A DNA stretch of 64,000 bases from Minisyncoccia bacterium. Lineage in GTDB: Bacteria > Patescibacteriota > Minisyncoccia > Phycocordibacterales > UBA9973. The position numbers and the translations under genes are program-made. The notes below the pieces were generated by a model, which ran no database searches, was not told the origin of the DNA, and was given only the letters and a program-made list of their open reading frames with translations. Where the stretch lies: contig JBGATK010000003.1 in the NCBI GenBank assembly GCA_044229265.1, forward strand, positions 24,638-88,637, given 5' to 3'. Below are positions 2,308 through 16,985 of the stretch, piece by piece; position 1 is the first letter of the stretch; each line of letters starts with the position of its first letter.

Positions 2308-3342
2308 CTAAAAAACTTTAGAGAAAATAGAAATAAGTGGCGCCAGTAGATAGTCATACCAGTGTGGTTTATAAGTTTTAGGATCAAAAAGATTACTCTT
2401 TCCCTTCCATTTTTCAGCTATTTTTTCAAGCTCTCCCACTACCCTACTTTCTTCAAAAAAAACACCTATTTCTGAATTATAATCAAAAGAAAGAAAATCA
2501 ATATTTTGTGATCCTATTAGTGCCCTCTTGCCATCTATAATTAAAACTTTAGCATGGTTCATAAATGGCTCAGTATATACCTTGACCCCTAGGCCAGACA
2601 TTTTATTCATATAAAAATAATTCGCACGGTCTGGAATAAACCAATCTACATAATATGGCACTATTACTTCAACTTCCACGCCACGTATTACCGCTTGGTG
2701 AAGCACAGCCCGGAGCCAGCGTTTTGGTGCAAAATACGGAGTAATAATTGTGACTTTTTTTTCAGCCTTGTTAAGAGCTTCTTTGTATATTCTTTTTAAA
2801 CTAAATTTTCGCATCTCTGGAATATGTTCTACCATCCAGTTTTTAGCATTATCTATTTTTAATTTTTTGTTTTTACTTTTAAGGTATTCATCCTTGCCTC
2901 CGACAGAAACGTAGAATCTAGCAAAAGTTCGCAAAAGTTTACCCACCAATTTTTTGTTTTTTATTTCTACCATCAAATCTTTCCAGAAGAAAGTATCCTG
3001 TTTTAAATTTACCCCACCCATATAAGCTATCGTTTCATCTACTATCAAAATCTTGCGATGTATTCTATGAAAAATATGCGAGGAAAAAATAACTTCTATG
3101 CCAGCACCTTCGAGTTCGGCTACTGCTTTTTTATTTAAAGCAAAACTACCTACATAATCTAATACCAAATGAACTTTTACGCCTTGTTTTGCTTTTTTAA
3201 TTAAAAGCTCAAAAAAGTTGTATTTTTGCATATCATTATGGAATATATATATTTCAAGCAGAATGCTATTTTCAGAGCGTTCTATGGCGCTATACATAGC
3301 CTGCCAAGCCCTGGTAGAATCAGTAAAAAATCTGTATTGCAT
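2308..3342 (-). CDS. Phospholipase D family protein with two HKD motifs (cardiolipin-synthase-like)
   Basis: HRKILIVDE...GGVNL and HAKVLIIDGKRALIGSQNID motifs. Confidence 0.75.
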   Translation of the reverse strand: MQYRFFTDSTRAWQAMYSAIERSENSILLEIYIFHNDMQKYNFFELLIKKAKQGVKVHLVLDYVGSFALNKKAVAELEGAGIEVIFSSHIFHRIHRKILIVDETIAYMGGVNLKQDTFFWKDLMVEIKNKKLVGKLLRTFARFYVSVGGKDEYLKSKNKKLKIDNAKNWMVEHIPEMRKFSLKRIYKEALNKAEKKVTIITPYFAPKRWLRAVLHQAVIRGVEVEVIVPYYVDWFIPDRANYFYMNKMSGLGVKVYTEPFMNHAKVLIIDGKRALIGSQNIDFLSFDYNSEIGVFFEESRVVGELEKIAEKWKGKSNLFDPKTYKPHWYDYLLAPLISIFSKVF

Positions 3343-3387
3343 AGAGGCTATTATAGCATTAAAAATAGCTGTGTTATAATTTTTATA

Positions 3388-4221
3388 ATGAAAAAAATAC
3401 GAAAAATCAAGAAGAAAAATAAAAAATTTGGATTAAAACTTTATGGCATATTTGTATTTACTGTGATAACTAGTATGATGGGTAGTTTTTATGCTCTAGG
3501 TTTCAGGGTAGAAGATATGCTTGATATTTCTTTGTATCAAAATCTAGCCAACCCTTCAGTAAAAGTAGTTCGAGTATATGCTGGCCTTCGCAAAGAAGAA
3601 ATAGCCGAGGTTTTTTACAAAAATTTAAATTGGACAGAGAAAGAAGCCGAGGAATTTGCTAAAGCAAATTCCTCGGCCAATTCCTCCCCTATCGAAGGCA
3701 AATTACTACCAAAAACATATCTAATTAACAAAGACGCTACACCTGCCGAAGTTCAAAATATTATGCTTACGGAATTTGAAAAAGCTTTCACTAAAATTCA
3801 AGCCAAATCTAACAAAAAAATAATAAACGAAGAAATAATTATTAAAATCGCTTCTATAATACAACGTGAAGCTTCTGGTAAAAAAGACATGCCACTTATA
3901 TCCGGCATAATCTGGAATCGTTTTTGGCTAGGAATGAAGCTCGAAATGGATTCCACTATTCAGTATGTAAAAGGCAGTGAAGAAGCTGGCTGGTGGAAGC
4001 AAATTTCTGTGAAAGACAAAAAAATAGATTCGCCTTATAATACCTATCTATACGAAGGTTTTCCTCCAGGAGCCATATCAAACCCTAGCTTAGACGCCAT
4101 AAATGCCGCTTACAACCCGACTAAAACCAAATGCATCTTTTACATACATGACAAGCAAAAAAGAACTCACTGCAGTGAGACTTACGAAGAACACAAAAAG
4201 AATGTGGAAGAATATTTATAA
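3388..4221 (+). CDS. mltG: Endolytic murein transglycosylase MltG (YceG-like)
   Basis: N-terminal transmembrane segment and a C-terminal ...FPPGAISNPSLDAINAAYNP...EH motif block typical of MltG. Start placed at MKKIRK (3388) rather than the ORF's first Met. Confidence 0.65.
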   Translation: MKKIRKIKKKNKKFGLKLYGIFVFTVITSMMGSFYALGFRVEDMLDISLYQNLANPSVKVVRVYAGLRKEEIAEVFYKNLNWTEKEAEEFAKANSSANSSPIEGKLLPKTYLINKDATPAEVQNIMLTEFEKAFTKIQAKSNKKIINEEIIIKIASIIQREASGKKDMPLISGIIWNRFWLGMKLEMDSTIQYVKGSEEAGWWKQISVKDKKIDSPYNTYLYEGFPPGAISNPSLDAINAAYNPTKTKCIFYIHDKQKRTHCSETYEEHKKNVEEYL

Positions 4222-4263
4222 CATTTGCTTTTTTTATAAAATAAGCTAAAATGTCTTTTATTG

Positions 4264-4291
4264 GGCCGTTAGCTATCTGTAGCGCCTCGTA
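4264..4291 (+). pseudogene. Degenerate 5'-half fragment of tRNA-Ala
   Basis: GGGCCGTTAGCT-ATCTG-TAG-CGCC matches the first 28 nt of the intact tRNA-Ala at 4335, with small deletions. Confidence 0.5.
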
Positions 4292-4334
4292 AAAGCAAAG
4301 TTTAATATTTATAGTTTGATATAATTACATACAT

Positions 4335-4407
4335 GGGCCGTTAGCTCATCTGGTAGAGCACCTCATTTGCAATGAGGGGGTGGCAGGTTCGAGTCCTGTA
4401 CGGTCCA
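4335..4407 (+). tRNA. tRNA-Ala (anticodon TGC)
   Basis: GGGCCGT acceptor stem with the G3:U70 Ala identity pair, D-arm GCTCATCTGGTAGAGC, anticodon loop TTTGCAA, T-arm GCAGG-TTCGAGT-CCTGT. Confidence 0.85.
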
Positions 4408-5930
4408 CAGTTTAGAACATCGTTAGAAAAATCGGGCGCGCGCTTGCGCGCGAGAATGGAGGGCGAAGGGGTGAAATCCGAATGCGGGTTGTGGGATATA
4501 GCGAATTCGGTCGGTGGGCAAAATGAGACATAGACGGATTTTCCACACAATTGGGGGTTCGTTCCAATTTTTTTGAAATAGTCTTTAATTTCAAAAAAAT
4601 TGTCGCTTGAAATCAATTGCGTGGCTTTTTTCATATCTAAAATCCATTCCCGCAAGGGTTCAATCCAAATATTTCTCTCCTCTCGGGCAGAGTCCATTTT
4701 GTGAGCGAGAGATACTTTTTGTTTCAAAAGCTCGTCTTTTTTGGCTAGGTAGTTTGCTTTTGGTATATCGCCATCAAGAAAAAGGGTAATCAAATTATCT
4801 AGCTTTTGTTGTATCTCTCGCTCACGCTCTCTCATCTGCCCGACAGCACTTCCCGACGATACTTTTACTTCTTTTTCCCATTCGTCTGTTTGCTTGGTCA
4901 TATACTCAATCCATTCGTCGGGAAGTGAAATCTGCTGAAGCCGTTCTTTGAGTTGCAAGACGAGCTTGTCTTCCCGCAAATATCCTTGCAAACAATTTTT
5001 CTTTTTCGTACAGCGATAATACCGATACTTCGTACCAAAGCGATTGGTCGCCCATTGTGCGGTTATCATTCCTCCGCACTCACCACAACGGAAAAGTCCT
5101 GTGAAAGGAAAATTGTGTCCAACTTTTGTTTTGCGGGGTCTTGCTCGCTCTTGCAACCTTTTTTGAACGGCTTCAAATAGCTCGGGATAAATAATTGGCG
5201 CAAAGCTGCCTTGATGCCATTCGTCTCTGTGTTTTACTAAACCGATATATGCTTTGCTCGTGAGCAGAGAGACGATGGCGGCTTTGCCAAGTGGCGTTCC
5301 ACATTTCGTGATGACTCCATGTTCCGCCAAAAAGTGCGAGAGTGATAAGAGGGTGTGCTTACCCGTGGCGAATTCGGTATATCCTTTGAGAATAATTCTC
5401 GCGAGTACAGGATCAGGCTCAATGTTCCTCGTTCTTGGATTGTTCACATAGCCACGCGGTCCTTTGGTAAGCCACTCTCCACGCCTGACTTTTTGGCGAA
5501 TTCCTCGCTCAACATTTTGCTTTAAATTGTCAGAATAATACTTGGATTGTCCGAACGCCACTTGAAGCATAAAGAGTCCTTGCGGGGTAGGTTCAAACCA
5601 AAATGTCGGAAAGCGCAAAGACACAATCTTTTGAGTATCTACTGCGTAGATAACTCGTCCACCGTCAATTGAGTTTCTTGCTAATCTATCGGGATGCCAT
5701 GCGAGAATACCTGCTCCATCCATTGACTCTATGCGCGACATCATTTCACCAAACTTTTGACGACCCGGTGTCTTTGCGCTTTTTGACTCTTGAAATTCTT
5801 CTAGAATTTCAAGATTTTCTTTACGCGCGAACTCACGAAGCTCAAAGAGTTGAGCTTCAATACTCATGACTTGTTTGTCGTCTTCCTCCGTACTCTTTCG
5901 TGCGTATAGAAAATATTTTGGTTTGTTCAT
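4341..5930 (-). CDS. Large serine recombinase
   Basis: N-terminal YARKST...Q...SIEAQ catalytic motif, recombinase domain, CGECGG zinc-ribbon and coiled-coil. Start placed at MNKPKY (5930). The ORF has no stop until 4341, so it reads through the left IR and into tRNA-Ala; the true C-terminus is uncertain. Confidence 0.8.
   Translation of the reverse strand: MNKPKYFLYARKSTEEDDKQVMSIEAQLFELREFARKENLEILEEFQESKSAKTPGRQKFGEMMSRIESMDGAGILAWHPDRLARNSIDGGRVIYAVDTQKIVSLRFPTFWFEPTPQGLFMLQVAFGQSKYYSDNLKQNVERGIRQKVRRGEWLTKGPRGYVNNPRTRNIEPDPVLARIILKGYTEFATGKHTLLSLSHFLAEHGVITKCGTPLGKAAIVSLLTSKAYIGLVKHRDEWHQGSFAPIIYPELFEAVQKRLQERARPRKTKVGHNFPFTGLFRCGECGGMITAQWATNRFGTKYRYYRCTKKKNCLQGYLREDKLVLQLKERLQQISLPDEWIEYMTKQTDEWEKEVKVSSGSAVGQMREREREIQQKLDNLITLFLDGDIPKANYLAKKDELLKQKVSLAHKMDSAREERNIWIEPLREWILDMKKATQLISSDNFFEIKDYFKKIGTNPQLCGKSVYVSFCPPTEFAISHNPHSDFTPSPSILARKRAPDFSNDVLNCGPYRTRTCHPLIANEVLYQMS
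4405..4520. repeat. Left inverted repeat (X, 116 bp) flanking the serine recombinase gene
   Basis: Reverse complement equals 5987..6102 with one mismatch. GC-rich, with internal palindromes (CGCGCGCTTGCGCGCG; CCGAAT...ATTCGG). Overlaps the last 3 nt of tRNA-Ala. Confidence 0.9.
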
Positions 5931-5986
5931 ATATTTGTTTTTAGATTTGAAAAAAGAATCCGTGTTTGTCTCGTTTCTGAGCCCTA

Positions 5987-6102
5987 TGCCCACCGACCGA
6001 ATTCGCTATATTCCACAACCCGCATTCGGATTTCACCCCTTCGCCCTCCATTCTCGCGCGCAAGCGCGCGCCCGATTTTTCTAACGATGTTCTAAACTGT
6101 GG
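5987..6102. repeat. Right inverted repeat (X') of the recombinase unit
   Basis: Reverse complement of 4405..4520. Confidence 0.9.
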
Positions 6103-6356
6103 TCTAATCATTACCAATGCGCGAACTTTTTTTGAGGACCAAATGAATGATTGTGTACGCTCCACGCAAAGTGTTAATTTAAATTAATTCTTACGCTCTA
6201 CTAATATCTTAATTCTATCAAATTCAACAGATGCCGAGCAAGCTCGGCATCCTGCCCGAGTCCCATCGCAATCCTCCGCCCACTTCGCTTTGCGAAGTGT
6301 TGGCGGACAAGCATTCTTTATGATTCGGCGGGGGTTTCTTTTGATTTGGTATGGGG
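6098..6356. repeat. Long inverted repeat IR-A (about 259 bp), left copy
   Basis: Reverse complement of 14030..14286. Directly abuts X', overlapping it by 5 bp (TGTGG). GC-rich hairpins GATGCCGAGCAAGCTCGGCATC and CACTTCGCTTTGCGAAGTG. Confidence 0.9.
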
Positions 6357-6453
6357 GATGGGGTGAGGAAAAAAGTTTGACAAACCTATTCAATACGTTT
6401 AATATCATAGCATACTCGCTCTTTGAAAAACGATAGTTTGTTTATATATAATT

Positions 6454-6792
6454 TTGGGTAAGTTAAAGTCTCTTTTTTGGGCTTTTAACTTATTCAAAAT
6501 TATTTATTTACTAAATCAAAAAATTATGGAAAATCAAAATCTTAATTCAAAATCCTATCTTTTACTGCGAAAAACATTAAAAAATTTATGTGCGATGAGC
6601 TTTGTCTGCTTCATGTTATTCGGGTCTTTACTTTTTGGACATATAGACAATTACAAAGATTATTCTCACACAACATCAGAGTATGCTCAAATCAGACAAA
6701 CTATTAATCTATATTTTTGTTTTTCGTTAGTCTCAATTTTTACCTGTTTAGCTTTATTGATTACAATATTCACCAAAGATAAAGAAGATTAA
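6454..6792 (+). CDS. hypothetical membrane protein (112 aa)
   Basis: ORF with two hydrophobic segments. Confidence 0.45.
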   Translation: MGKLKSLFWAFNLFKIIYLLNQKIMENQNLNSKSYLLLRKTLKNLCAMSFVCFMLFGSLLFGHIDNYKDYSHTTSEYAQIRQTINLYFCFSLVSIFTCLALLITIFTKDKED

Positions 6793-6830
6793 ATTTAAAT
6801 CTTTACCTTAAACCTTAAAATTTTACTGAA

Positions 6831-6992
6831 ATGAAAAATTATCTGATTTTTTTATTGAGCACTTTGAAAACTGAAAATCAAATTAACAGAGAGATGCTAG
6901 AGGTGTTTATCCTTGGAGGAGTCATTGGAATAGTGCTAGGTAGCTTCGTTATGATACTGCGCAAAAAACAAGGCAAAAATACTCCCTCCTGA
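6831..6992 (+). CDS. possible small membrane protein (53 aa)
   Basis: ORF translated by hand (MKNYLIFLLSTLKTENQ...), with a hydrophobic core, followed by the terminator hairpin at 7016..7046. Confidence 0.3.
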   Translation: MKNYLIFLLSTLKTENQINREMLEVFILGGVIGIVLGSFVMILRKKQGKNTPS

Positions 6993-7045
6993 TTAAGATT
7001 TCAAAGTCATTAGATCAGAAGCCTGTTCAAATGTTCAGGCTTTTT

Positions 7046-7501
7046 TTATTTCCCTTTCAAATATTCACCAAAATCTTTAAATAGTCCTAAGGATGTCGCT
7101 CGTAGTTCTGCCCTTTTTTCTTTCGTAAGTCCAAGGACAACACTTGGGTCATGCAAATCCATTCTATTTGTTGTAGGAGATATGCACAAAAGTCCCTTTT
7201 CTTTTTCCCAATTCCAGATAATCATTTTCCAGTATATTCTTTCACCTTCTTTTGAACTAGAATTATTAAACTCTTTAGCAAGAGCACCTATTTTATTAAA
7301 CAGTTCTTCATTCAAATTTTGCCAGTCATCTTGTCCTGATTTTTTGAGTGAGAAAAATATATACGGCAAAACATATTTTTCTTGAGAAAGATTTGCTTTA
7401 TCACTCTCAATAAAATCTCCATCGTATCCATCATACATATTTATAACTTCACCACCAGCTGAATTAATATAATTTACTATCTCTATTGTTTCTTTAAGCA
7501 T
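7046..7501 (-). CDS. hypothetical protein (151 aa), second gene of the operon
   Basis: ORF; start overlaps the stop of the upstream gene. Confidence 0.5.
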   Translation of the reverse strand: MLKETIEIVNYINSAGGEVINMYDGYDGDFIESDKANLSQEKYVLPYIFFSLKKSGQDDWQNLNEELFNKIGALAKEFNNSSSKEGERIYWKMIIWNWEKEKGLLCISPTTNRMDLHDPSVVLGLTKEKRAELRATSLGLFKDFGEYLKGK

Positions 7502-8357
7502 AAGTTTTATTTATTCTTATAATGTTTTCAATTTCCTTCGACTTTTCAGAATATATACTGATTTCTTCTTTTGAAATTTGTTTGCCTTCCATAATCTTTT
7601 GAGCTAGTTTCTTCAGCACATCCTCAGAAACTAGACCTGTATCTACAAATCTTTCTAATTCTTCTTTGGAAATGGTGCTCTCGTTTTCTATAGTTTCATC
7701 AACTAAAAGATCTATGCCTTTGGTGCGATATTTCTTGAGTTGTATGGAAATCTCTATGAAGAACTTTTCTTCGGGTTTAAGGTTTGCGGATTCTCTTTGT
7801 AAATATGATTCAAGCGAAGCCCAGTCATCCATGGCTTTGGCTGTGAGGTCGAGTATTTCTGAGGTGCGCTTATCTCCATTCACATTTTCCATTTTCTCAT
7901 ATGCTTCTTGCCAGATATTTTGAATTTTGGAAAATTCGCTACCCAGCTCTTCGGTAGTATATCTTTTATTTTCTTTTGATAAATTTACGATTTCTTCCTC
8001 ACTGACTTTTTGTGTGTTTTCCATTGGTGCTTTTTCGCGCGCGCCGAGCACTTTCGCAAGTGCAAGAGCCGAAGCATAAATTTCTTGCTTTGTAGGACCA
8101 CCTTGTTCAGGAGAGAGCATTTTGCTTGCTTCTCTGTTTTGCGCTATTTCAACCCTATGTTTTTCCAATATGGAAAGTGGTTTTGCATATTCAAACTCAC
8201 GTCTGTATTCCAGAAGTGATTTTACTATGGATTTTGCGAAACTTAGCCTTAAGTTATACCAAAAAGAATTTTTTTTTGCTTCATTTTGACGCACATCCCG
8301 AGCGGTACTTTTAGCTCTTTCTCCATCAAAATTCACACTAAAGATTGATTCACTCAT
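7494..8357 (-). CDS. hypothetical protein (287 aa), first gene of a two-gene operon
   Basis: ORF with an 8-bp overlap to the downstream ORF. No recognised motifs. Confidence 0.5.
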   Translation of the reverse strand: MSESIFSVNFDGERAKSTARDVRQNEAKKNSFWYNLRLSFAKSIVKSLLEYRREFEYAKPLSILEKHRVEIAQNREASKMLSPEQGGPTKQEIYASALALAKVLGAREKAPMENTQKVSEEEIVNLSKENKRYTTEELGSEFSKIQNIWQEAYEKMENVNGDKRTSEILDLTAKAMDDWASLESYLQRESANLKPEEKFFIEISIQLKKYRTKGIDLLVDETIENESTISKEELERFVDTGLVSEDVLKKLAQKIMEGKQISKEEISIYSEKSKEIENIIRINKTYA

Positions 8358-8387
8358 AGCTATATTATATCACAAAATTGCATTTGC

Positions 8388-8654
8388 TTGGGAATGGATT
8401 ATAATCATTTTATGACTGATTTAGAGACAAATTTTACCCACCCCGAACTCCAAAAAGGAGAGGTTTTCTTTACAAATGCAGATCTTTCTCAGTTCAACGC
8501 TCTGGAGTTTAAATCAAAGCGAATGGGTAAAGTGGCGTATGATGGAAATGGAAATATGCAAAATCACGAGAATTGGTTTCCTGTATTCATAAATAATACG
8601 GAAGTAGAGACTTCCGGCTTTTCTCTTATGGAGTTGCGTAGGAAGCAAAATTAA
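8388..8654 (+). CDS. hypothetical protein (88 aa)
   Basis: ORF only. Confidence 0.35.
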   Translation: MGMDYNHFMTDLETNFTHPELQKGEVFFTNADLSQFNALEFKSKRMGKVAYDGNGNMQNHENWFPVFINNTEVETSGFSLMELRRKQN

Positions 8655-8760
8655 AATTAAAAAATTAAAATCCATTGCGATGCCTATTGCAATCTTTTTT
8701 TATATAAAAAAACACTTCCGACAAAGTTGCCGGAAGTGTAATTGGTAAATTCTTTATTTA

Positions 8761-9102
8761 TCAAGATTCAATAAAATCTAAGGATTTTCTGTCTAATAAT
8801 TCAATCCTTGTACCAAAATAAAGAAAAACAGCTAAAAATCCTCCTGCAAATGCATTTATTGCACTTGCAAAATAGCACAAACTTACATCATGTCGTGAAA
8901 AAAAATATTCCAAAACAATATTGCAAATTACGGCTAATGCTATTACAAAGAATCCTTCGATTCCATACCCAAGATAGAGTAAAATCATTATTGCTATCAA
9001 TGGGGTGAGGATTTGAGCAAAAAGCATTAACGTGCTTTCAAAAAACATGCCTGTCACTCCAAAAGCACAAATGAGTGTGGCTAACAAAACTTTTGTTTTC
9101 AT
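8761..9102 (-). CDS. hypothetical integral membrane protein (113 aa)
   Basis: Three or four hydrophobic helices. Confidence 0.45.
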   Translation of the reverse strand: MKTKVLLATLICAFGVTGMFFESTLMLFAQILTPLIAIMILLYLGYGIEGFFVIALAVICNIVLEYFFSRHDVSLCYFASAINAFAGGFLAVFLYFGTRIELLDRKSLDFIES

Positions 9103-9808
9103 AATTACAAATTTAAGAAATTTAGAAAATTATTTTTCGTCTTTGTATTCATCTGCGTCAGGAACAAATCCTTTTAGAAATTCAGTGGCTACTGCTAAAA
9201 AGTTTTCTACTGATTCTCTTTTCTGAATGAAATCATGCATATTTTTTTCAAAATCGTATTTCATTTGTTCGCAGAGATGTTTTAAGAGTACTAGCTGTAA
9301 GTCTCTTAGAATACAGTATTCTTTATTTCGTTGAAGTAATGTGCCAGCTTCTTTGCTAGTTTCAATCTTCGTCTAATCTTTTAAAGCAAGCCTCGGCTTT
9401 ATCAAGAAATTTTGAAAAAAATAACGGGTAAAATCCGTTAATAGGAACGTTTGGTTGATGCATAAATTTTAATTTAATGTGGTTTAACAATAATTTTTCA
9501 AATAAGATATTAAAATTAAGATACCACAAAAATAGATTTTTGGCAATAAAAAAGGGCCTGTATAGCCGGCGCGTGCTTTTTACTTATCACCACATACTAC
9601 CCAATACAGCACATGCATCCCAAAAATATTTAAAACTCGCCTCTGCCAGTTTTCTGTCCTTTGCTGTGATTATGAGTTTTTTATTTTTCATGGACTTTCT
9701 TGATTTATTTTTGATGGGTGATTTGTCTTTCAAAGAAAAGAAAAAAGTTAGAATGTAAGGTGCCCCATTCTTAAGACAAAAAGTTAACCAATTAAATGTA
9801 TTGTATTC

Positions 9809-10726
9809 CTAAGCGATTTTTTTAGCAAATTTCTTTGTAAACTCTCTCGGCGACATACGCAGAGCCGTGTGTATTCGAGAGGTATTGTAAATATGTATGG
9901 TGTGGTAAATCTCATAAACCAGTTCTCCTAAAGTATCAAACCTGTTGGTATCTCCAAGATCAATCTTGAACTTATCATAGTAGCTTTCTTGATACCCATT
10001 CTGCCAAGGTGATCCTTTAGCTGACATTGAAATTTGGATACCACCAGATGTGCAAAAATCTTGAAATATTTCTGAAGTATATTCACTGCCTTGATCGGAG
10101 TGAATGATATCCGGTCGTGGATGATCCATGAGGGCACTGACTAAAGCTTGCAACACTAGAGCGCTAGAATGATTTGCTAGTACACAAACTCCGACTATCT
10201 CTCGATTGTAAATATCTTCAACTGTAGCCACATAAATGAACCTATTCTTGTACCAGAGATATGTAAAATCTGTCACCCAGATTTGATTCATTCTTGTTAG
10301 CGGAGTGGTAATTAACAGATTCGGATATTCTTCATAATCCGTTGATTTTACTCGTTTCCACGGCTTCCTGTGCCTTCTATATGGCTTGATGCCATAGATC
10401 TTCATTACCCGAAGTATTCTTTTCTTGTTTAGCTTGAGCTCTATTGCCAGCCTCTTGTGTCCATAACTAGGAAAAGTCTCCCACACCTTCTCTATTTGTT
10501 TTTTAATTTCTCCATCTTCACTTCTCTTCTTGCTTTTGTAATACAAAGAACTTCTAGAAACTTCAAATATCTCATGAAGCTTCTTATGGTTTACCGCCAC
10601 CCCTTTTTTTGTCCAACCCCTAGTTGGACTGTGAGCTCTCCGATGATTTGCTTTAATTCCTTGTTTTCTTTGGTGAGCTTCATTATCTCTTTGGATGTTG
10701 TTCCTTCGACACCACTTTTTAACCAT
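9809..10726 (-). CDS. IS3 transposase OrfB (DDE integrase core), probably expressed as an OrfAB fusion by -1 frameshift
   Basis: Integrase-core motifs (WVTDFTY..., HSDQGSEYTS, SPWQNG). The frame is -1 relative to OrfA. Confidence 0.8.
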   Translation of the reverse strand: MVKKWCRRNNIQRDNEAHQRKQGIKANHRRAHSPTRGWTKKGVAVNHKKLHEIFEVSRSSLYYKSKKRSEDGEIKKQIEKVWETFPSYGHKRLAIELKLNKKRILRVMKIYGIKPYRRHRKPWKRVKSTDYEEYPNLLITTPLTRMNQIWVTDFTYLWYKNRFIYVATVEDIYNREIVGVCVLANHSSALVLQALVSALMDHPRPDIIHSDQGSEYTSEIFQDFCTSGGIQISMSAKGSPWQNGYQESYYDKFKIDLGDTNRFDTLGELVYEIYHTIHIYNTSRIHTALRMSPREFTKKFAKKIA

Positions 10727-10854
10727 TCGTATATCGTAGTTTTACTAATGCCATGTTCCTCTGATATTTCTTTGATTGTTTTACCACTCGTCTTTACTCT
10801 TTCCAATATTTGATTTTTTAGATCTTTACCCACTCTAAATTTTTTATTAGACAT
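10591..10854 (-). CDS. IS3 transposase OrfA (HTH)
   Basis: HTH motif ISKTTIYEW and a leucine-zipper-like region; ends at the frameshift window. Confidence 0.75.
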   Translation of the reverse strand: MSNKKFRVGKDLKNQILERVKTSGKTIKEISEEHGISKTTIYEWLKSGVEGTTSKEIMKLTKENKELKQIIGELTVQLGVGQKKGWR

Positions 10855-10947
10855 ATGCTCAATTAAAATTACTGGTATATCGACTATTATACCGCTAATC
10901 TTGGTTGAAAATGTGTCTTAATTTTGGGGTACCTGTCAGAACGAATA

Positions 10948-11115
10948 ATGAATTTATTTTCTAAAAAATCTACAATCACGAATGATGAAGTAGAAAAACT
11001 TTTGCATTGCTCGGATGCAACGGCAACGAGATATCTCTCACAACTAGAAAAAGAAAATAAGATAAAAAGAAATGGGAAAGAGCGAGGTAAGTATGTATCA
11101 TATTCTAAAATCTAG
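10948..11115 (+). CDS. small winged-helix/HTH protein or C-terminal fragment of an IS-disrupted gene (55 aa)
   Basis: The listed ORF starts inside the IS terminal repeat. Internal Met at 10948. An HTH-like stretch ATRYLSQLEKENKIKR. Confidence 0.35.
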   Translation: MNLFSKKSTITNDEVEKLLHCSDATATRYLSQLEKENKIKRNGKERGKYVSYSKI

Positions 11116-11172
11116 ATAAAAAAATCCCCGAGTGAACGAGGATTTATATAATCATATTTGAAACTTGTAAAT

Positions 11173-11532
11173 CTAACTACCTAAAAAATTATTTCTGTTA
11201 TCATCGTTATCAAATAACGGTACATATTCCATATCTTCTGCGGTTGGGAACGCAAGTTTTGTTGTATTTCTTATGTTTGCCCATTTTTCATCATCAATCT
11301 GGTTTAGCTCAATGTTCCTTAGCTTGTTGTCTTCAAGTATTTTTAAGACTTCCACAGATTCTTTGTTCTCTTCAAACCATTTGGAAAATTGTCTGTATTC
11401 CTCCAGTTTTTGTTTCCCGTTCTTGAGTGTAGAGATTTGATCATAATGATGTATGAAAAGCCTGTCTAAAAATGGAACATTTTGGATGTAAGTTTCAAAT
11501 AGCTTCAAAAATTTTTCATTTTGCGTATTCAT
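11173..11532 (-). CDS. hypothetical small protein, paralog A (119 aa)
   Basis: Shares motifs with 12139..12456 (F/Y..P..HHY, WFE(E/K)NKES.VVL, C-terminal (P/G)LFDN). Confidence 0.55.
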   Translation of the reverse strand: MNTQNEKFLKLFETYIQNVPFLDRLFIHHYDQISTLKNGKQKLEEYRQFSKWFEENKESVEVLKILEDNKLRNIELNQIDDEKWANIRNTTKLAFPTAEDMEYVPLFDNDDNRNNFLGS

Positions 11533-11548
11533 GATTTTTGTATTTTAA

Positions 11549-11600
11549 GTGAATAATAAGTTTTCAGAAAAATAGCTTTCGCTGAAAACTTATTATTCAC
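11549..11600. promoter_or_regulatory. Perfect 19-bp inverted repeat (GTGAATAATAAGTTTTCAG / CTGAAAACTTATTATTCAC) with a 14-nt spacer, just upstream of paralog A
   Basis: Seen in sequence. Role as a terminator, operator or leader structure is unresolved. Confidence 0.5.
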
Positions 11601-11617
11601 TGTATTTATCAAAGTAC

Positions 11618-11813
11618 CTTATATCTGTATATTCTGCCTTTTTCCCTGTATTGTCAATCTAATTTAGGGAGCAGAAAGGTGCGCGAAAGGGAGGGTGGGT
11701 AAGCACCTGTATTCTGCGCCTTCAGGCATTTCCGCTAGGGTGTTCAGGGCTAAATGACGAGCGCCACGGTGTATTGCAAATTAATTCTCGAAGACGAAAG
11801 TCATACTCTCTAA
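11618..11813 (+). repeat. Structured repeat R, copy 1 (about 196 nt); candidate ncRNA
   Basis: Conserved 5' block (CCTTATATCTGTATATTCTGCC...TGTATTGTCAATC), a variable stem-loop, then a 90-nt conserved 3' block shared with 13496..13713. Confidence 0.6.
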
Positions 11814-12138
11814 TGAAATTAGTAGCTAGAGTATGCGGCTTATTGACATTTCCATTTAAGTCCATCATGTCTCCAGTAATACATAGAATATCAATCGAAG
11901 TTCTTGCTCTAGAATATAAAAATTCCTACAATCTCTCTAAGAACAATTTAATTTTATCATTATCCAACTTTATACCTTTACTTAGATCTTCACTTAAATG
12001 GAAATCCGTTAGATGCAAAATATATATTGGGTTTGACATTTATTTATTGTATAGTTCTTTCAATAATTGAGAAAATTAATTTAATATAATAAAAAAGGTC
12101 ATCTATATGATGACCTTAAATAAATCTTAAGAATTAAA

Positions 12139-12456
12139 TTAATTATCAAAAAGACCTATAGGCTCTTCAACACTAGCCAATGTTGGCATCATGAATTTTA
12201 TCTTGCCTCGTTCTAAATTAATCTCATTTCTTCTATTTTGAATCAACTTCTGTATTTGATTTTCGTGCTTATCAAAAACAGATAAAACAACCTGTGATTC
12301 CTTATTTTTTTCGAACCACGTATCAAATGAATCAAAATCTGCCAATTTAGTTTCAGGATCCAATTCTACATAATAATGATAAAGTAGTACTCCATTATAT
12401 GGAAAACGCGTTAAGTAAGCTTCTAACATTGTTAGAAAAATCTGTTCTTTGTGCAT
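12139..12456 (-). CDS. hypothetical small protein, paralog B (105 aa)
   Basis: Paralog of 11173..11532. Confidence 0.55.
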   Translation of the reverse strand: MHKEQIFLTMLEAYLTRFPYNGVLLYHYYVELDPETKLADFDSFDTWFEKNKESQVVLSVFDKHENQIQKLIQNRRNEINLERGKIKFMMPTLASVEEPIGLFDN

Positions 12457-12497
12457 TTTATAAAATTTTAGCCGTTGGGCTTCTATAAAAACATAGA

Positions 12498-12544
12498 TTT
12501 ACCACAGCCAAAAAGCTTTATCATTACCTTTTGGCTGTGGTAAA
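12498..12544. promoter_or_regulatory. Perfect 16-bp inverted repeat (TTTACCACAGCCAAAA / TTTTGGCTGTGGTAAA) upstream of paralog B
   Basis: Seen in sequence. Same arrangement as the hairpin upstream of paralog A but with a different sequence. Confidence 0.5.
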
Positions 12545-12665
12545 TCCAATACCATTTACAAGGTTCAAATATATGATTTACATTAATTATGCCAAAAGCT
12601 AAAATATAAATCAAGTAATCTCAGGTGATTAAAAATATAACGCAATAAAAGGAGAAGAGATCAAA

Positions 12666-12884
12666 GTGCTTAGATTCCTCCGTTATTATTCAGTCTTTAA
12701 TGTTGAAGACATTGAAGGTGCTGAATTAGACCTAAACCGGTTTAAAGAGGTAAAATTGACCGATAGCTTGATAGAAAACAGCTCTTCTTATCTTATGAAT
12801 GTCCTCAAAGAAGACCCGAAATATATCTTCAAGATTTCGGCTGAAGCTCAAAAGGCTGTGAACCTAATAATAGGTGCTCATTGA
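12666..12884 (+). CDS. hypothetical protein (72 aa), GTG start with an AAGGAG ribosome-binding site
   Basis: ORF with a well-spaced Shine-Dalgarno-like AAGGAG. Confidence 0.4.
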   Translation: MLRFLRYYSVFNVEDIEGAELDLNRFKEVKLTDSLIENSSSYLMNVLKEDPKYIFKISAEAQKAVNLIIGAH

Positions 12885-13495
12885 GTTGATTAATTGTAAT
12901 TTTAATTAGGAATTGCTATAATTTAACAAAGTTATAATTTTGCTCATTGTCAGTTAAAATTAATAATAGGACAGAGGTATATATATAAATATTATTTATA
13001 TATGTATATAAAATATTCATTATCAAGCTTATGATTATGAAAATAATCTTAATTTTCCTTGGATTTTATAGTAAGATAGATTATATTCGCCTAATTTTAT
13101 TGAACAGGATAGAAAAAGACGAAGCAGTCAATATTTTCAACCTGAACTCAATTTTCAAGTCAATATTATTGATAGTAGTAACTAAAATAAAAGTGGGCAC
13201 CTGTTAGGTACCCACAACGCTCATAAGAGCAGGTGGAGTATTAAATGTAATACCAAGTGTTCTAATGCAATTCTGAGTTGCCTTAGATTTTCAGCTTTAG
13301 TATTATCATTCCTCCACTTTTGGAGAAAAGTAAAAATACTCATAAGAACAAATTTTACATTTCTCCAGTTATCTCAAAAGCGCTAATAATTACATTAGCG
13401 CTTTTATTTTTTAATCATTAGTAGAGAAGAAACTGTTCAGAAACAAAAAAGCCACCTAGATGGTGGTGGTGCAATGAGGGGTGGAATGTCGCGTG

Positions 13496-13713
13496 CCTTA
13501 TATCTGTATATTCTGCCTTTTCCTCTGTATTGTCAATCAAGGGAGGCAACTTCGTGCACGCAAGGGTGGGAGCCCCGACGTAATCGTCGGAGCTGGGGGC
13601 AAGCACGAGGCTTCTGCGCCTTCAGGCATTTCCGCTAGGGTGTTCAGGGCTAAATGACGAGCGCCACGGTGTATTGCAAATGAGTTCTCGAAGACGAAAG
13701 TCATACTCTCTAA
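13496..13713 (+). repeat. Structured repeat R, copy 2 (about 218 nt)
   Basis: Same conserved 5' and 3' blocks as copy 1. The variable stem carries compensatory changes (GGTGC/GCACC in copy 1, CGTGC/GCACG in copy 2). Confidence 0.6.
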
Positions 13714-13865
13714 CAGCTATATTGAAAAAGAGGATGGGGGTTGGCGTAACCGCTGGGGGAAGGAACACTTCCTTCCCCCAACTAGTGGTGTGCAATTTTC
13801 TTTTCCTGAACGGCTCATTTCTTCCCATTTTAGCCGTTCCTTGTAAAATGCACACCTCCTAGGCT

Positions 13866-13900
13866 GGCGCTCGAGCCCTAGCGGAAATGCCTGAGGCGGA
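13866..13900 (-). repeat. Partial inverted copy of the R core (R3)
   Basis: CCCTAGCGGAAATGCCTGAGGCG is the reverse complement of the R core CGCCTTCAGGCATTTCCGCTAGGG. Confidence 0.5.
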
Positions 13901-14029
13901 TGCCGAGGGTGCCACCCTTTAGCACTGAACACAATACTACAGAAATGAAAGAAGGCTCAATATAAAAACTGAATTTTGCATTTAAATTTCACACTTCCTT
14001 CTTTGAAGGAAGTTGACCGAGCCCATCGC

Positions 14030-14286
14030 CCATACCAAATCAAAAGAAACCCCCGCCGAATCATAAAGAATGCTTGTCCGCCAACACTTCGCAAAGCGAA
14101 GTGGGCGGAGGATTGCGATGGGACTCGGGCAGGATGCCGAGCTTGCTCGGCATCTGTTGAATTTGATAGAATTAAGATATTAGTAGAGCGTAAGAATTAA
14201 TTTAAATTAACACTTTGCGTGGAGCGTACACAATCATTCATTTGGTCCTCAAAAAAAGTTCGCGCATTGGTAATGATTAGACCACA
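14030..14286. repeat. Long inverted repeat IR-A', right copy
   Basis: Reverse complement of 6098..6356. The outer end ...GATTAGACCACA mirrors the X'/IR-A junction. Confidence 0.9.
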
Positions 14287-14503
14287 CTTATAAAAAAGAG
14301 TCTTCGCAAGAAGGCCTTTTTTATTGTGTGGAACGTAAGCAAAGTATCTATTTACTTTGCGTCAGGACGAGAAAAGCTTTTCGTTACAAATTTTGATTAA
14401 AATCAAAATTTGTCGAAAAGGTATACTGTTCCTGTAAGGAAAGAGTCCTCTACTGTCCACAAATTTTAAAGCCATTTCTATGATGTAGAAATGGCTTTGT
14501 TTT

Positions 14504-14848
14504 TTAATACGTTGTCTGCATTTTACGTAATAAGACATATATCCTCTTTGTTATGCCTATTATTTCCCACAAGCGTGGATCCAACTCACGTGCACCTTCC
14601 CAGGATTGATGATGTAATAAAATTTCATGGAAATCTACAAGCGATTTTAAATGATGATTTACATCTTTCCAATTGTGGTTGTTAAAATCTTCATCAAAAA
14701 GGAAATTTTCGACAAAGTCAAAAGATTCCTTTCTTTTTTCAAATTCGGTATTAATTTCAGGGCCGAACTTTATAAAGTTATTAATGCCACTGAAAAAAAC
14801 AGTGGTTCGTGCTCGGTCAAAAGCTGTGAGTTTTTCTGTCTGCATCAT
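14504..14848 (-). CDS. hypothetical protein (114 aa)
   Basis: ORF followed on the minus strand by a hairpin at 14468..14500. Confidence 0.4.
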   Translation of the reverse strand: MMQTEKLTAFDRARTTVFFSGINNFIKFGPEINTEFEKRKESFDFVENFLFDEDFNNHNWKDVNHHLKSLVDFHEILLHHQSWEGARELDPRLWEIIGITKRIYVLLRKMQTTY

Positions 14849-14974
14849 TGGGTAATTAAATTTTTTAAAAAAGAATTTGTTTCTATATTCAAACTAACAC
14901 AAAAATAAAAAAAGTCCAAACAAAAATCCCCCATCAAATAAGGGGGATTTTTGTTAATTTAATTGAAAATTAAA

Positions 14975-15682
14975 TTACATATTACTTGAAGCCATCGCTT
15001 GAGGCTCACTCATACTCTTGCCTTTGTAGAAAACTCCACCTAAAAGCAATACGAAACCAACCACAGAAGAAATACCTATAAGCCAGTATCCAGTATCTTG
15101 TGACACAGAACCTGCTGCTAGGAAACGGAAAGCCCATGTGAAAGTAATGAGCAAAATACCAACAGAAAACATTATAGAACGCATACGCACTAAAGCACTG
15201 TCGGATTGCATACCTACTACTAGTAAAACCAATGCTGAAGGCACCCATACTGCATACATAAGCCATTGATCAAGCTGGCTCAATATACTAGTAATACCTG
15301 AACCCAAACCAGAAAGGTCTAGACCTGCAATACCTGCAAGCTGGAAAAGTGTTCTGCAAAGAGCTAATAGCAAAAACACACCTATCCAAAAACCTTTTTG
15401 TTTTCCTTCTGTGCCAGCATACATCATAAGTATGAAAGCTATCATTGAAACCCAAAGCACAAGGTCAGAAATAAGGAACATAACACTTTGTGTAGTGCCA
15501 CTTGTTTTTAGTATTGTGAAAGAAATTAAAAACAAAAACACGAATGTAGAAACAAAATAATAAGAGAGGTATTTTACCTTCTCTGGCGCAGGTTGCATTT
15601 TCGCCTTACGCATATAAAGAATTATCCAAGACAGAACCACTATCACTGCATCAGCTAAAGCTGTAAAACCTATAAATTCCAT
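14975..15682 (-). CDS. integral membrane protein (235 aa, roughly 7 transmembrane segments)
   Basis: Hydrophobicity pattern. Terminator hairpin at 14918..14950. Confidence 0.6.
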   Translation of the reverse strand: MEFIGFTALADAVIVVLSWIILYMRKAKMQPAPEKVKYLSYYFVSTFVFLFLISFTILKTSGTTQSVMFLISDLVLWVSMIAFILMMYAGTEGKQKGFWIGVFLLLALCRTLFQLAGIAGLDLSGLGSGITSILSQLDQWLMYAVWVPSALVLLVVGMQSDSALVRMRSIMFSVGILLITFTWAFRFLAAGSVSQDTGYWLIGISSVVGFVLLLGGVFYKGKSMSEPQAMASSNM

Positions 15683-15743
15683 AATTAATTTTAAATAAAA
15701 AATAAATTAATAATATCGACTTTTTGCTTATCAAATAAGCTTT

Positions 15744-16985
15744 ATGTATAATGTATATATTATAACAAGGGGTTTTTTTAAAAACAATACAAAAACAATG
15801 GAAGAAGAAAAGCTTAAAAATGATATAGCCTCAATACCTGTCCTAAAGCCAGTTTTTCCAATATTTATAAAACTTTTTTTGGCATTCTTTTTTCTTAGTC
15901 TTTTTACTATAGTCGCCAATTCTATACTAGTATTTTGGACATATACAAATGCAGACGTGGGTTTGACCGCCGAACAATCCACCAGCCTCTTTAATGCATT
16001 TAAAAGTAATTTTGTATTTGTAATACTTTTTGTAATCATTCCTGCAATTATACTTTCTATACAAATGTCAGAAGACATAGCTTCACCTATTCGTCTTATC
16101 ACAAAAAATATTAAAGAAATTGCTGTTGGAAATTTAAATATAAAACTTTTCTCCAAACGTAAGGACGAATTTGGAAATTTGATAAATATTTTTAACACCA
16201 TGACTCAAAAATTGCGCGAAGTAAAAGAGCGCAATGAAGAAATTTCTAAAATGAAATCAAACTTCATCACTGTAGCCTCCCACCAGCTTCGTACTCCAGC
16301 CTCTGGTGTGCGCTGGGGGCTCGATGCCTTACTTTCTGAGGGCAAGGGTCCGCTCAATCAAGATCAAAAAGAAATTCTTTACAAATGTATCGAACGCAAT
16401 AGCGAAACAATTAAAAATATCGACGACCTTTTAAATGCTTCACAAATAGAAGAAGACAATTTCCCTTATGATTTTCAAGACATGCACGTATCACCAGCTA
16501 TCGCTCAAGCTGTAAAAATTTTTGAAAATGAAGCTCGTATAAAAGAACGTAAAATTGTTTTTGAAAATAAATTAAATGGCACAGAGAAAATCTTTGCTGA
16601 CCCAGCACGCATGAGTATTGTTTTCAAAAACCTTATTGAAAATGCCATAGAATACAGTACCAAGAATACCGATGTAGAAGTTAGCGCTGAAATTGAAGGT
16701 GATTATATTTTAATACAAGTAGCCAACTACGGTATTGGTATCAAAAAAGAAGATCAGGATAAAATTTTTAATCAATTCTTCCGCGCTGACAATGCCCTAC
16801 TAGCCAAACCAAATGGCATAGGCCTCGGATTATATATTTGTAAAAATATTATCGAACGCCATAAAGGGCGAATCATAGGCACTACAAACAACAATGGTAA
16901 AACCGTATTCTCTGTTTACTTACCTATACCGAAAAATTTGATAACCGAAAAACCAAAAATCGAAGAATTTTTAGAAACTTTGTAA
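15744..16985 (+). CDS. Sensor histidine kinase (two transmembrane segments, HAMP, HisKA, HATPase_c)
   Basis: H-box ASHQLRTPASGV; G-boxes GIGIKKEDQDKIFNQFFR and GIGLGLYICKNIIERHKGRI. Confidence 0.85.
   Translation: MYNVYIITRGFFKNNTKTMEEEKLKNDIASIPVLKPVFPIFIKLFLAFFFLSLFTIVANSILVFWTYTNADVGLTAEQSTSLFNAFKSNFVFVILFVIIPAIILSIQMSEDIASPIRLITKNIKEIAVGNLNIKLFSKRKDEFGNLINIFNTMTQKLREVKERNEEISKMKSNFITVASHQLRTPASGVRWGLDALLSEGKGPLNQDQKEILYKCIERNSETIKNIDDLLNASQIEEDNFPYDFQDMHVSPAIAQAVKIFENEARIKERKIVFENKLNGTEKIFADPARMSIVFKNLIENAIEYSTKNTDVEVSAEIEGDYILIQVANYGIGIKKEDQDKIFNQFFRADNALLAKPNGIGLGLYICKNIIERHKGRIIGTTNNNGKTVFSVYLPIPKNLITEKPKIEEFLETL

Follow-up and report, generated by a model that had tools for sequence, protein, structure and literature searches.

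Two adjoining pairs of long inverted repeats, one around a recombinase gene and the other around a stretch of cargo, raise the question of whether a locus was built by integration or is reshuffled by inversion. Such a locus lies in 64,000 nt of DNA from a Minisyncoccia bacterium of the Patescibacteriota (NCBI GenBank assembly GCA_044229265.1, contig JBGATK010000003.1, positions 24,638 to 88,637), a stretch that we call the window and whose own numbering is used below. An earlier reading made from the letters alone (the sequence-only reading) had left two options for the block beside a tRNA-Ala gene: a roughly 9.9-kb element with an inverted copy of its own attachment junction, or two adjacent invertible segments. 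Our analysis favours the former. We consider it likely that 4410-14286 is a genomic island, inserted by its own large serine recombinase (LSR) at the 3′ end of tRNA-Ala(UGC) and carrying an inverted second copy of its attachment site, attP. This reading draws on an empty target site, the logic of the attL, attP and attR junctions, a full-length LSR and the recurrence of the same layout at many tRNA genes.

Insertion at a tRNA-Ala gene

The two outer neighbours of the block are a tRNA gene and a flank that begins with a terminator:

4335-4408, + strand: tRNA-Ala(UGC), called by ARAGORN and matched by the Rfam tRNA model at 63.6 bits; its 3′ end is the B arm
14287-14459, + strand: right flank R, the B′ arm, which holds the displaced tRNA terminator (14300-14315)

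The tRNA gene remains complete after insertion, and the right flank starts with an intrinsic terminator, a feature expected just after a tRNA gene and shared by several relatives. The recombinase unit has a GC content of 41-48%, compared with ∼30-35% in the flanks. We then searched metagenome contigs for a 27-nt hypothetical junction that joins the tRNA directly to the right flank. This search returned one match, locus L083. Here, a tRNA-Ala 98.7% identical to that of the window is followed directly by the terminator and a homologue of 14282-14459 (76% identity over 184 nt), and the locus contains no LSR, X arm or A arm. Relative to this empty site, the block 4410-14286 (9877 bp) is an insertion. 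An empty tRNA-Ala site, which the sequence-only reading had proposed to seek in related genomes, was thus found, though in a different organism rather than in a sister strain. The flanking proteins of the window and of L083 show no synteny, and the homology is confined to ∼180 nt beside the tRNA.

Past the tRNA-Ala terminator, the window (14330-14459) and L083 (2568-2700) both keep a ∼130-nt block of two hairpins (GCAAAGTA...TACTTTGC and CGAGAAAAGCTTTTCG) despite their different neighbouring genes. Its matches to Rfam are weak and sub-threshold.

Inverted repeats and attachment sites

Two pairs of inverted repeats (IR), I1 and I2, meet at three junctions:

4405-4409: core of attL, CCACA, where the tRNA meets arm X; the pentamer is common to the three junctions, and 14 related loci have an analogous three-way core
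4405-4520: arm X (I2), P′ side of attP; holds the final ∼39 codons of the recombinase frame, along with a GC hairpin and T-run
5987-6102: arm X′ (I2), the inverted copy of X, upstream of the recombinase gene
6098-6102: core of the internal, inverted and intact attP, where X′ meets A; 374 of 376 nt agree with the predicted circle junction
6095-6362: IR-A (I1), which comprises the P arm of the internal attP and ∼240 nt of flank with substructure conserved in an alignment of 40 arms
14022-14289: IR-A′ (I1), the P arm of attR
14282-14286: core of attR, CCACA, where A′ meets the right flank

A repeat search across 3000-16000 recovered both pairs that the sequence-only reading had described. The arms of I1 are 268 nt long, 99% complementary and separated by 7659 nt; those of I2 are 116 nt long, 99% complementary and separated by 1466 nt. 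Repeats of this length and identity are far above chance, and no further copy of either arm occurs elsewhere in the 64-kb window. The bounds first assigned to the larger pair (6098-6356 and 14030-14286) proved slightly short, as the arms also take in the shared core and a few bases at their inner ends.

The central claim of the sequence-only reading was that the internal junction equals the circle junction of the outer ends, and this claim holds. Joining 14022-14286 to 4410-4520 in silico yields 376 nt, of which 374 match the reverse complement of 5987-6362. The pentamer CCACA that had been noted at both outer termini is present there and also at the internal junction, making three junctions in all. 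At the left junction, the tRNA sequence ...ACGGTCCACA is followed by GTTTAG (in a longer rendering, ACGGTCCACA then GTTTAGAAC). The internal junction, as its reverse complement, has ...GATTAGACCACA followed by GTTTAG (GATTAGACCACA then GTTTAGAAC), and at the right junction ...GATTAGACCACA is followed by CTTATA (GATTAGACCACA then CTTATAAAAAAG). Along the array, the pentamers alternate in orientation as CCACA, TGTGG and CCACA. With T as the tRNA arm and R as the right flank, we read these junctions as the products of one integration: attB is T.R, attL is T.X, attR is A′.R, and the internal junction is attP, A′.X, in inverted orientation.

A second sequence feature bears on these assignments. The motif GTTCG starts 29 nt short of the core's end in the P arm of the window, L016 and L061; in their tRNA arms, where the motif is the T-arm, the distance is 23 nt. 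GTTCG apart, the tRNA and A′ arms are dissimilar outside the shared core. In characterised serine integrases, the motif recognised by the second DNA-binding domain lies 4-5 bp nearer to the centre in attB than in attP (PMC11722253). The 6-nt offset seen here is similar though not identical to the published spacing, and would be consistent with an attB-attP pair without amounting to proof.

The large serine recombinase

The recombinase is encoded at the left end of the island:

4341-5993, - strand: LSR open reading frame (ORF); ATG at 5930 (4341-5930), 529 aa

The ORF matches the Pfam domains Resolvase (PF00239, 6.2e-22, residues 28-174 of the long ORF), Recombinase (PF07508, 3.5e-7) and Zn_ribbon_recom (PF13408, 1.7e-9), the last two both past their curated cut-offs. 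Beyond the zinc ribbon lie ∼100 residues rich in E, K and L; in serine integrases, a coiled-coil insertion in the zinc-ribbon domain governs directionality. The protein also carries the motif YARKST...DRLAR, and S13, R82 and R85 are invariant across 18 homologues (alignment A2). Among PHROG families, it matches PHROG 95, an integrase, at 3e-72; a PHROG 'DNA invertase' family covers the catalytic domain alone, as do solved structures. By its predicted domain architecture, the recombinase is a large serine recombinase. It was accordingly not a candidate for a small serine invertase (∼190 aa with a C-terminal helix-turn-helix) or for an Rci-type tyrosine recombinase, given its 529 residues and its recombinase and zinc-ribbon domains. 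We infer that it would catalyse integration between attP and attB at the CCACA core. LSRs in plasmid and phage collections share at most 29% identity with the window protein, nothing close to it was found as a free or phage-borne form in IMG/VR, and the family is essentially absent from viral contigs. No contig on record encodes an exact match to the protein.

The 3′ end of the gene is unusual. Its frame crosses arm X and the core (a Cys codon, TGT, lies within TGTGG) and stops only in the antisense strand of tRNA-Ala. Integration would swap the tail of the protein, from ...LIITNARTFFEDQ... to one derived from the antisense of the tRNA. Among the listed homologues, the frame is open as far as the core in 120 of 120, and 11 of the 120 carry the A-type tail. 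Where the frame enters the A arm, a protein-like tail, FARTYFEQN, is conserved, which follows from the conservation of the P-arm DNA motif. Short contigs on which the gene runs into the A arm, L095 among them, are ambiguous as signs of an excised circle owing to the repeats.

Two side observations concern this end of the gene. The frame has no stop before its own terminator hairpin (4436-4452), and terminated transcripts would be non-stop mRNAs. In addition, the homologues P0016, P0022, P0024 and P0032, and L096 compared with L097, combine near-identical recombinase bodies with wholly different X tails and cores. The switch point is a highly conserved motif that encodes SFCPPTEFA. These switches could reflect either modular exchange of att specificity between elements or chimeric assembly.

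A family-wide layout

More than 6500 homologues of the LSR are present in the database; the few named ones are from Patescibacteria, and many lie on contigs of 1.7-2.5 kb. Species-representative genomes contain at least 563 loci. We fetched 80 of these, all from Patescibacteria metagenome-assembled genomes (MAGs) and with LSRs of 57-84% identity, and compared each locus with itself (L numbers denote related loci or contigs). The X/X′ repeat brackets the recombinase gene in 69 of the 80. In 39, the gene starts <450 nt from a contig end, as would be expected if an unresolved repeat had broken the assembly there. Among the 31 loci with >2.5 kb of upstream sequence, 15 have a second inverted pair that abuts X′; its arms measure 61-366 nt, in most cases with 99-100% identity, and enclose 1.4-8.9 kb of cargo. 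The 15 include a locus on a complete chromosome, CP060229.1. The three junctions share a common short core, exactly as in the window, at 14 such loci. The P-arm motif, an A-run plus GTTCGnGCAAAGG, lies ∼22-24 nt from the X arm in nearly all loci with upstream sequence, the clear exception being the truncated L038. The targets of the family comprise Ala, Glu, Val, Arg, Gly, Ser, Leu, Lys, Pro and Ile tRNA genes and the transfer-messenger RNA (tmRNA) gene.

In nearly all assembled loci, the attP copy that overlaps the 3′ end of the gene is the one that has recombined with the tRNA. On this sequence evidence, a recombinase gene between two inverted putative attP copies is the backbone of a large, Patescibacteria-specific LSR family. 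Recombination of the gene-end copy with the tRNA leaves both the gene (116-nt arms in the window) and the cargo (268-nt arms) bracketed by inverted repeats.

The arms of a locus resemble one another far more than they resemble those of other loci: X is identical within the locus in 27 of 59 X pairs, yet differs widely between loci. We infer concerted evolution by gene conversion or flip-flop recombination, or in part the collapse of repeats during assembly.

Several further features of the family deserve mention. Some members sit at the 3′ end of ssrA, the tmRNA gene (L014:10742-11131; L090 and its sibling contigs, with smpB downstream). ARAGORN calls the target in one Paceibacteria MAG (L010:1832-1905) a 'tRNA-Stop' with anticodon UUA, which may be suppressor-like or a mis-called Lys-type tRNA. 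Several genomes hold two or more such elements. Genes for TrwB/VirD4-like coupling proteins lie in the flank beyond the target tRNA-Ala at L001:3956-5437 and L002:2297-3811. A distant LSR clade (36-37% identity) sits beside tRNA-Ser with inverted repeats of ∼120 nt around the gene (L080:6396-8038, L014:18770-20422); the layout would thus predate the split of the clades.

Cargo and a conserved structured element

The cargo of the island contains the following features:

6363-14021: the cargo as a whole, 7659 nt
6454-6792, + strand, and 8761-9102, - strand: small membrane proteins
7494-8357 and 7046-7501, - strand: two-gene unit with no detectable family
9758-10934: IS3-family insertion with HTH_Tnp_1 and rve domains
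11173-11532 and 12139-12456, - strand: paralogous small proteins
11678-11838: partial copy of element S, found with nhmmer
13540-13935, + strand: element S, a structured RNA-like element of ∼390 nt just inside the distal arm

The IS3 element consists of orfA (10591-10854) and orfB (9809-10726), both on the - strand, between imperfect terminal inverted repeats (TIRs) of 34 nt (9758-9791 and 10901-10934). The other cargo ORFs matched no Pfam, PADLOC or PHROG family, save for a weak, sub-threshold Pfam match to DUF7789 in the ORF at 6454-6792. AT-rich stretches of the cargo drop to 18.5% GC. The sequence-only reading had called the cargo entirely accessory. Its description of the genes, the IS3 element, the paralogues and the AT-rich tract stands, while 'entirely' does not, as the ∼390-nt element S is conserved across the family. 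The 'structured repeats' that it listed in the cargo correspond to one full and one partial copy of this element, the repeats 11614-11813 and 13493-13713 marking the partial second copy.

Element S has a GC content of ∼52% against a background of ∼32% and folds far better than its shuffled versions (z-scores of -6.6 and -9.5). Its homologues, at E values of 1e-60 to 1e-104, are conserved in at least 10 related islands:

Copies on the - strand: L016:4545-4921, L020:4666-5047, L029:3049-3459, L026:106-497, L033:1642-2054 and L043:3701-4136
+ strand copies: L030:193-602, L090:4161-4551 and L024:5785-6195

The element always points the same way, from S through the A′ arm to the core. In an alignment of nine S sequences, 93.8% of cells are paired, and 22 base pairs show compensatory change, compared with 8.5 ± 1.9 for shuffled and 2-9 for slid controls. 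The alignment also has about 20 G-U cells, which favour the + strand as sense. Rfam holds no match to S or to the arms. These properties make S a candidate for a new class of non-coding RNA. We also considered S as a guide or bridge RNA and rejected this role: its longest matches to attP, attL or attR are 6-9 nt, and shuffled controls reach ∼7.5 nt on average and 10-11 nt at most.

The cargo of relatives varies and is often defence-like, with type I and II restriction-modification systems, OLD-like ATPases and helicases. In L016, L020, L033, L061, L076 and L029, the internal attP has beside it a small gene for an XRE-type repressor that runs divergently from the recombinase gene. In L024, the XRE gene lies beside the same attP but downstream of a flipped recombinase gene.

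Arm substructure and a working model

The arms carry signals that resemble terminators and promoters:

4452-4436, - strand: terminator-like site in X, in the sense direction of the recombinase
6055-6070, + strand: terminator-like site in X′
6252-6229, - strand: hairpin terminator of IR-A, with a promoter-like site at 6177-6150, - strand, and then an A-run and the motif GTTCGCGCA toward the core
14132-14155, + strand: terminator of IR-A′, with a promoter-like site at 14207-14234, + strand, facing outward

The A arms are richer in conserved substructure than an LSR site needs, with a GC hairpin terminator, two direct repeats of ∼20 nt and a -10-like element. The direct repeats (CCACnnnnnnGGAGCGT, with A or G as the next base) lie between the hairpin and the P-arm motif in both A arms (6103-6362 and 14022-14281) and are conserved across much of the family in the 40-arm alignment. 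They may be operators or binding sites for accessory proteins.

These signals suggest how the arms might govern transcription. The hairpin and T-run of the X arm would stop transcription that leaves the recombinase gene and not transcription that enters it, whereas each A arm would place a terminator ahead of an outward promoter-like site. Once the island is integrated, the A-arm promoter would drive sense transcription of the gene, and the tRNA promoter, its own terminator now displaced by 9.9 kb, would drive antisense transcription. The excised circle would carry two inverted attP sites. In our working model, the spare attP has a regulatory role. Synapsis of two attP sites without recombination has been described for the SPbeta integrase (PMC11722253), and by analogy an attP-attP synapse could loop out the recombinase gene.

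Weighing the alternatives

Several points weigh against an LSR-integrated island. The organism that supplies the empty site, L083, is not a sister strain and differs from the window in GC content (41.5%) and in its neighbouring genes. The 6-nt motif offset, though close, does not equal the published 4-5 bp. It is also unusual for an expressed gene to lack a stop before its own terminator. We found no recombination directionality factor, and the cargo offered no conserved candidate for one. Repeat collapse in short-read assemblies could inflate the near-identity of the arms. Finally, a canonical LSR attP is ∼50 bp. Known LSR biology requires no duplicated flank of 116 + 268 nt and thus offers no purpose for the spare attP.

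The sequence-only reading had itself named two ways in which the island could dissolve: misassembly of the repeats, or an arrangement fixed long ago, with diverged repeats in related strains. As an assembly artefact, the inverted copies and the internal junction would stem from mis-joined integrated and excised forms or from repeat duplication. Related contigs do often break at these repeats, as the 39 of 80 loci with a gene start near a contig end attest. Yet the three-junction layout appears in more than 15 independent assemblies from different pipelines, including a complete chromosome, it does so at different tRNAs with different arm sequences, and the two mismatches in 376 nt mean that the arms of the window are not exact copies; we hold an artefact to be very improbable. 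A fixed, ancient and inert duplication, the remnant of a dead element without present mobility, is improbable, if less so. It would fit the lack of any observed circle or polymorphism for this copy, the IS3 element inserted in the cargo, and the decay of some relatives (the A arm is truncated after ∼12 nt in L038 and soon followed by core genes in L050). Against it stand the intact LSR frame with invariant catalytic residues, the 99% identity of the arms and the intact internal attP. Moreover, relatives occupy many different tRNA genes, with near-identical arms and different cargo, which requires repeated mobility of the family. Recurrence on this scale speaks against both misassembly and a single ancient duplication. 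The least probable alternative, to which we give almost no weight, is that two separate TIR elements, each with a palindromic attP (X′.X and A′.A), were inserted successively at the same tRNA. Each module alone does resemble a TIR-flanked unit, but the modules lack direct target-site duplications and the cargo module encodes no recombinase. For serine recombinases, the central dinucleotides have to match, and no dinucleotide within CCACA is palindromic; the required tRNA/A or X′/X junctions should thus be unable to form in the necessary orientation, and we rejected the palindromic-attP model on this ground. Two other schemes were rejected as well. A single-stranded 'dumbbell' akin to CTXphi, in which the copies anneal into one double-stranded attP, predicts junctions (X′.T′) that differ from those observed, and its double-strand exchange would leave broken chromosome ends capped by hairpins. 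An insertion sequence or transposon with TIRs is contradicted by the absence of a direct target-site duplication around the modules and by the sole DDE gene, which belongs to the separate IS3 element in the cargo.

Inversion is a different kind of rival, as it is compatible with an island. Here, the three alternating sites would serve as a two-segment switch, shufflon-like or Hin-like, in which the LSR (for example by pairing the internal attP with attL, which retains the tRNA arm) or RecA flips the recombinase gene, the cargo or both. Such flips would toggle recombinase expression (with the gene in sense or antisense relative to the tRNA promoter), the C-terminal tail of the protein or cargo expression. 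We regard inversion as the actual function of the array as possible but doubtful. The sites do alternate in orientation, in all loci examined the upstream arm has an open frame that crosses the core and enters the A arm, and A-type tails occur in 11 of 120 homologues. L063 has the recombinase gene facing away from the tRNA, and in L024 and L050 this gene runs into the A arm; L030 and L090 have S beside the proximal arm, not the distal one; one and the same LSR protein is found with two different upstream neighbours (XRE-side or S-side); and the arms evolve in concert, as the 27 identical X pairs illustrate. However, the differences in orientation all come from short-read contigs with repeats at least as long as the assembler k-mer, in which an occasional wrong exit from a repeat is expected and yields the same flip patterns. 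L096 and L097 are instructive in this regard: at 95% identity and with the same tRNA-Ile, they look like a clear flip, but the arms of L096 are heterologous, its internal core is TCACA against GGACA in attL, and it is probably a chimera. For these reasons we do not accept the 'flipped' loci as proof of inversion. There is also a strong bias in orientation, with the gene convergent with the tRNA in ∼66 of 80 loci, S distal in 10 of 12 (11 of 13 with L024) and the XRE gene proximal in 6 of 6. Identity to X and the conserved DNA motif of the P arm largely account for the open X′ frame. Differences between X and X′ arms are enriched at third codon positions (29/31/58) and include no stops or frameshifts; as most arms match X exactly and one of the two is coding in any case, they do not establish translation of X′, and selection on X′ as coding DNA was set aside. 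Characterised LSRs recombine only attP with attB, and the attP-attP synapse of SPbeta is thought to be non-recombining (PMC11722253). Inversion at some rate is nevertheless possible, and indeed expected, from RecA acting on 116-268 nt of identity.

A bolder version, which we think unlikely and offer as speculation, is that the dual inverted attP is the built-in control device of a new class of LSR elements. The LSR, acting on the spare attP and attL, or RecA would flip the gene between antisense-read and sense-read states and swap its C-terminal tail, thereby controlling both integration and excision with no need for a directionality factor; a further part in the life cycle of the element would fall to the S RNA.

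Relation to known systems

The island, as an LSR-mobilised integrative element, is of a known kind; its unusual conserved features are the frame that runs across attP and the intact, inverted spare attP in long duplicated arms. Like the large serine integrases of phiC31, Bxb1, A118/LI, SPbeta (SprA) and TP901-1, the window protein combines Resolvase, recombinase and zinc-ribbon domains, and its gene sits at the element end beside attP. The likeness may extend to the sites, as the putative attP and attB share few bases and the motif is placed closer to the centre in the B arm than in the P arm (PMC11722253). Unlike these phage and plasmid LSRs, the window element targets the 3′ end of a tRNA or tmRNA gene, its frame crosses attP, and an inverted intact second attP lies upstream of the gene. 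The closest parallel to the frame is myxophage Mx8, whose attP lies within the 3′ end of the integrase reading frame, such that integration gives the gene a new 3′ end (PMC6070905). The window LSR frame likewise crosses attP and would change its tail on integration. Mx8 Int, by contrast, is a phage tyrosine recombinase, and no inverted duplicate of its attP features in the review cited (PMC6070905).

Parallels to the repeat architecture come from further afield. The yeast 2-micron plasmid and plastid genomes are circles split by a large inverted repeat that exist as flip-flop isomers. In the former, Flp, a tyrosine recombinase, joins identical FRT sites for copy-number amplification of a replicating plasmid. 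The predicted circle of the window element would similarly be split by a 384-nt inverted repeat, with a site in each copy and the recombinase gene in one segment, and the repeat copies of its family evolve in concert as well; unlike in the 2-micron plasmid, no replication function is evident in the island. The invertases Hin, Gin, Cin and Min are small serine recombinases and Rci of R64 is a tyrosine recombinase; they act on sites of 26-31 bp and switch gene ends or promoters. As in these invertases and shufflons, the recombinase gene here lies next to or inside inverted sites, and three alternating sites would allow two independent inversions. Unlike them, the window encodes an integrase-type LSR, its sites have attL, attP and attR character, and the whole array is inserted at a tRNA. 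To our knowledge, the only precedent for a segment between inverted attP sites is the engineered landing pad used for phiC31 cassette exchange, such as MiMIC. That design is synthetic and needs a donor with two inverted attB sites, and no natural two-attB partner was seen for the window element. Our literature search found no description of this LSR family or of a natural dual inverted attP.

Patescibacteria, or the candidate phyla radiation, have tiny genomes in which gene exchange is poorly known and mobile elements have been little studied. The LSR family described here appears to be a major vehicle of accessory and defence genes at their tRNA and tmRNA genes. A recombinase whose frame runs across its own attP, and which keeps a second attP in inverted orientation, is also relevant to the study of site-specific recombination and to the engineering of serine integrases. 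We know of no LSR that recombines two attP sites, and current models allow for recombination neither between attP and attP nor between attP and attL. Since these models bar such reactions and the layout is nonetheless conserved, the spare attP may have either a regulatory purpose or a part in an unrecognised reaction. On a practical note, the repeats of this family break short-read Patescibacteria assemblies at predictable places.

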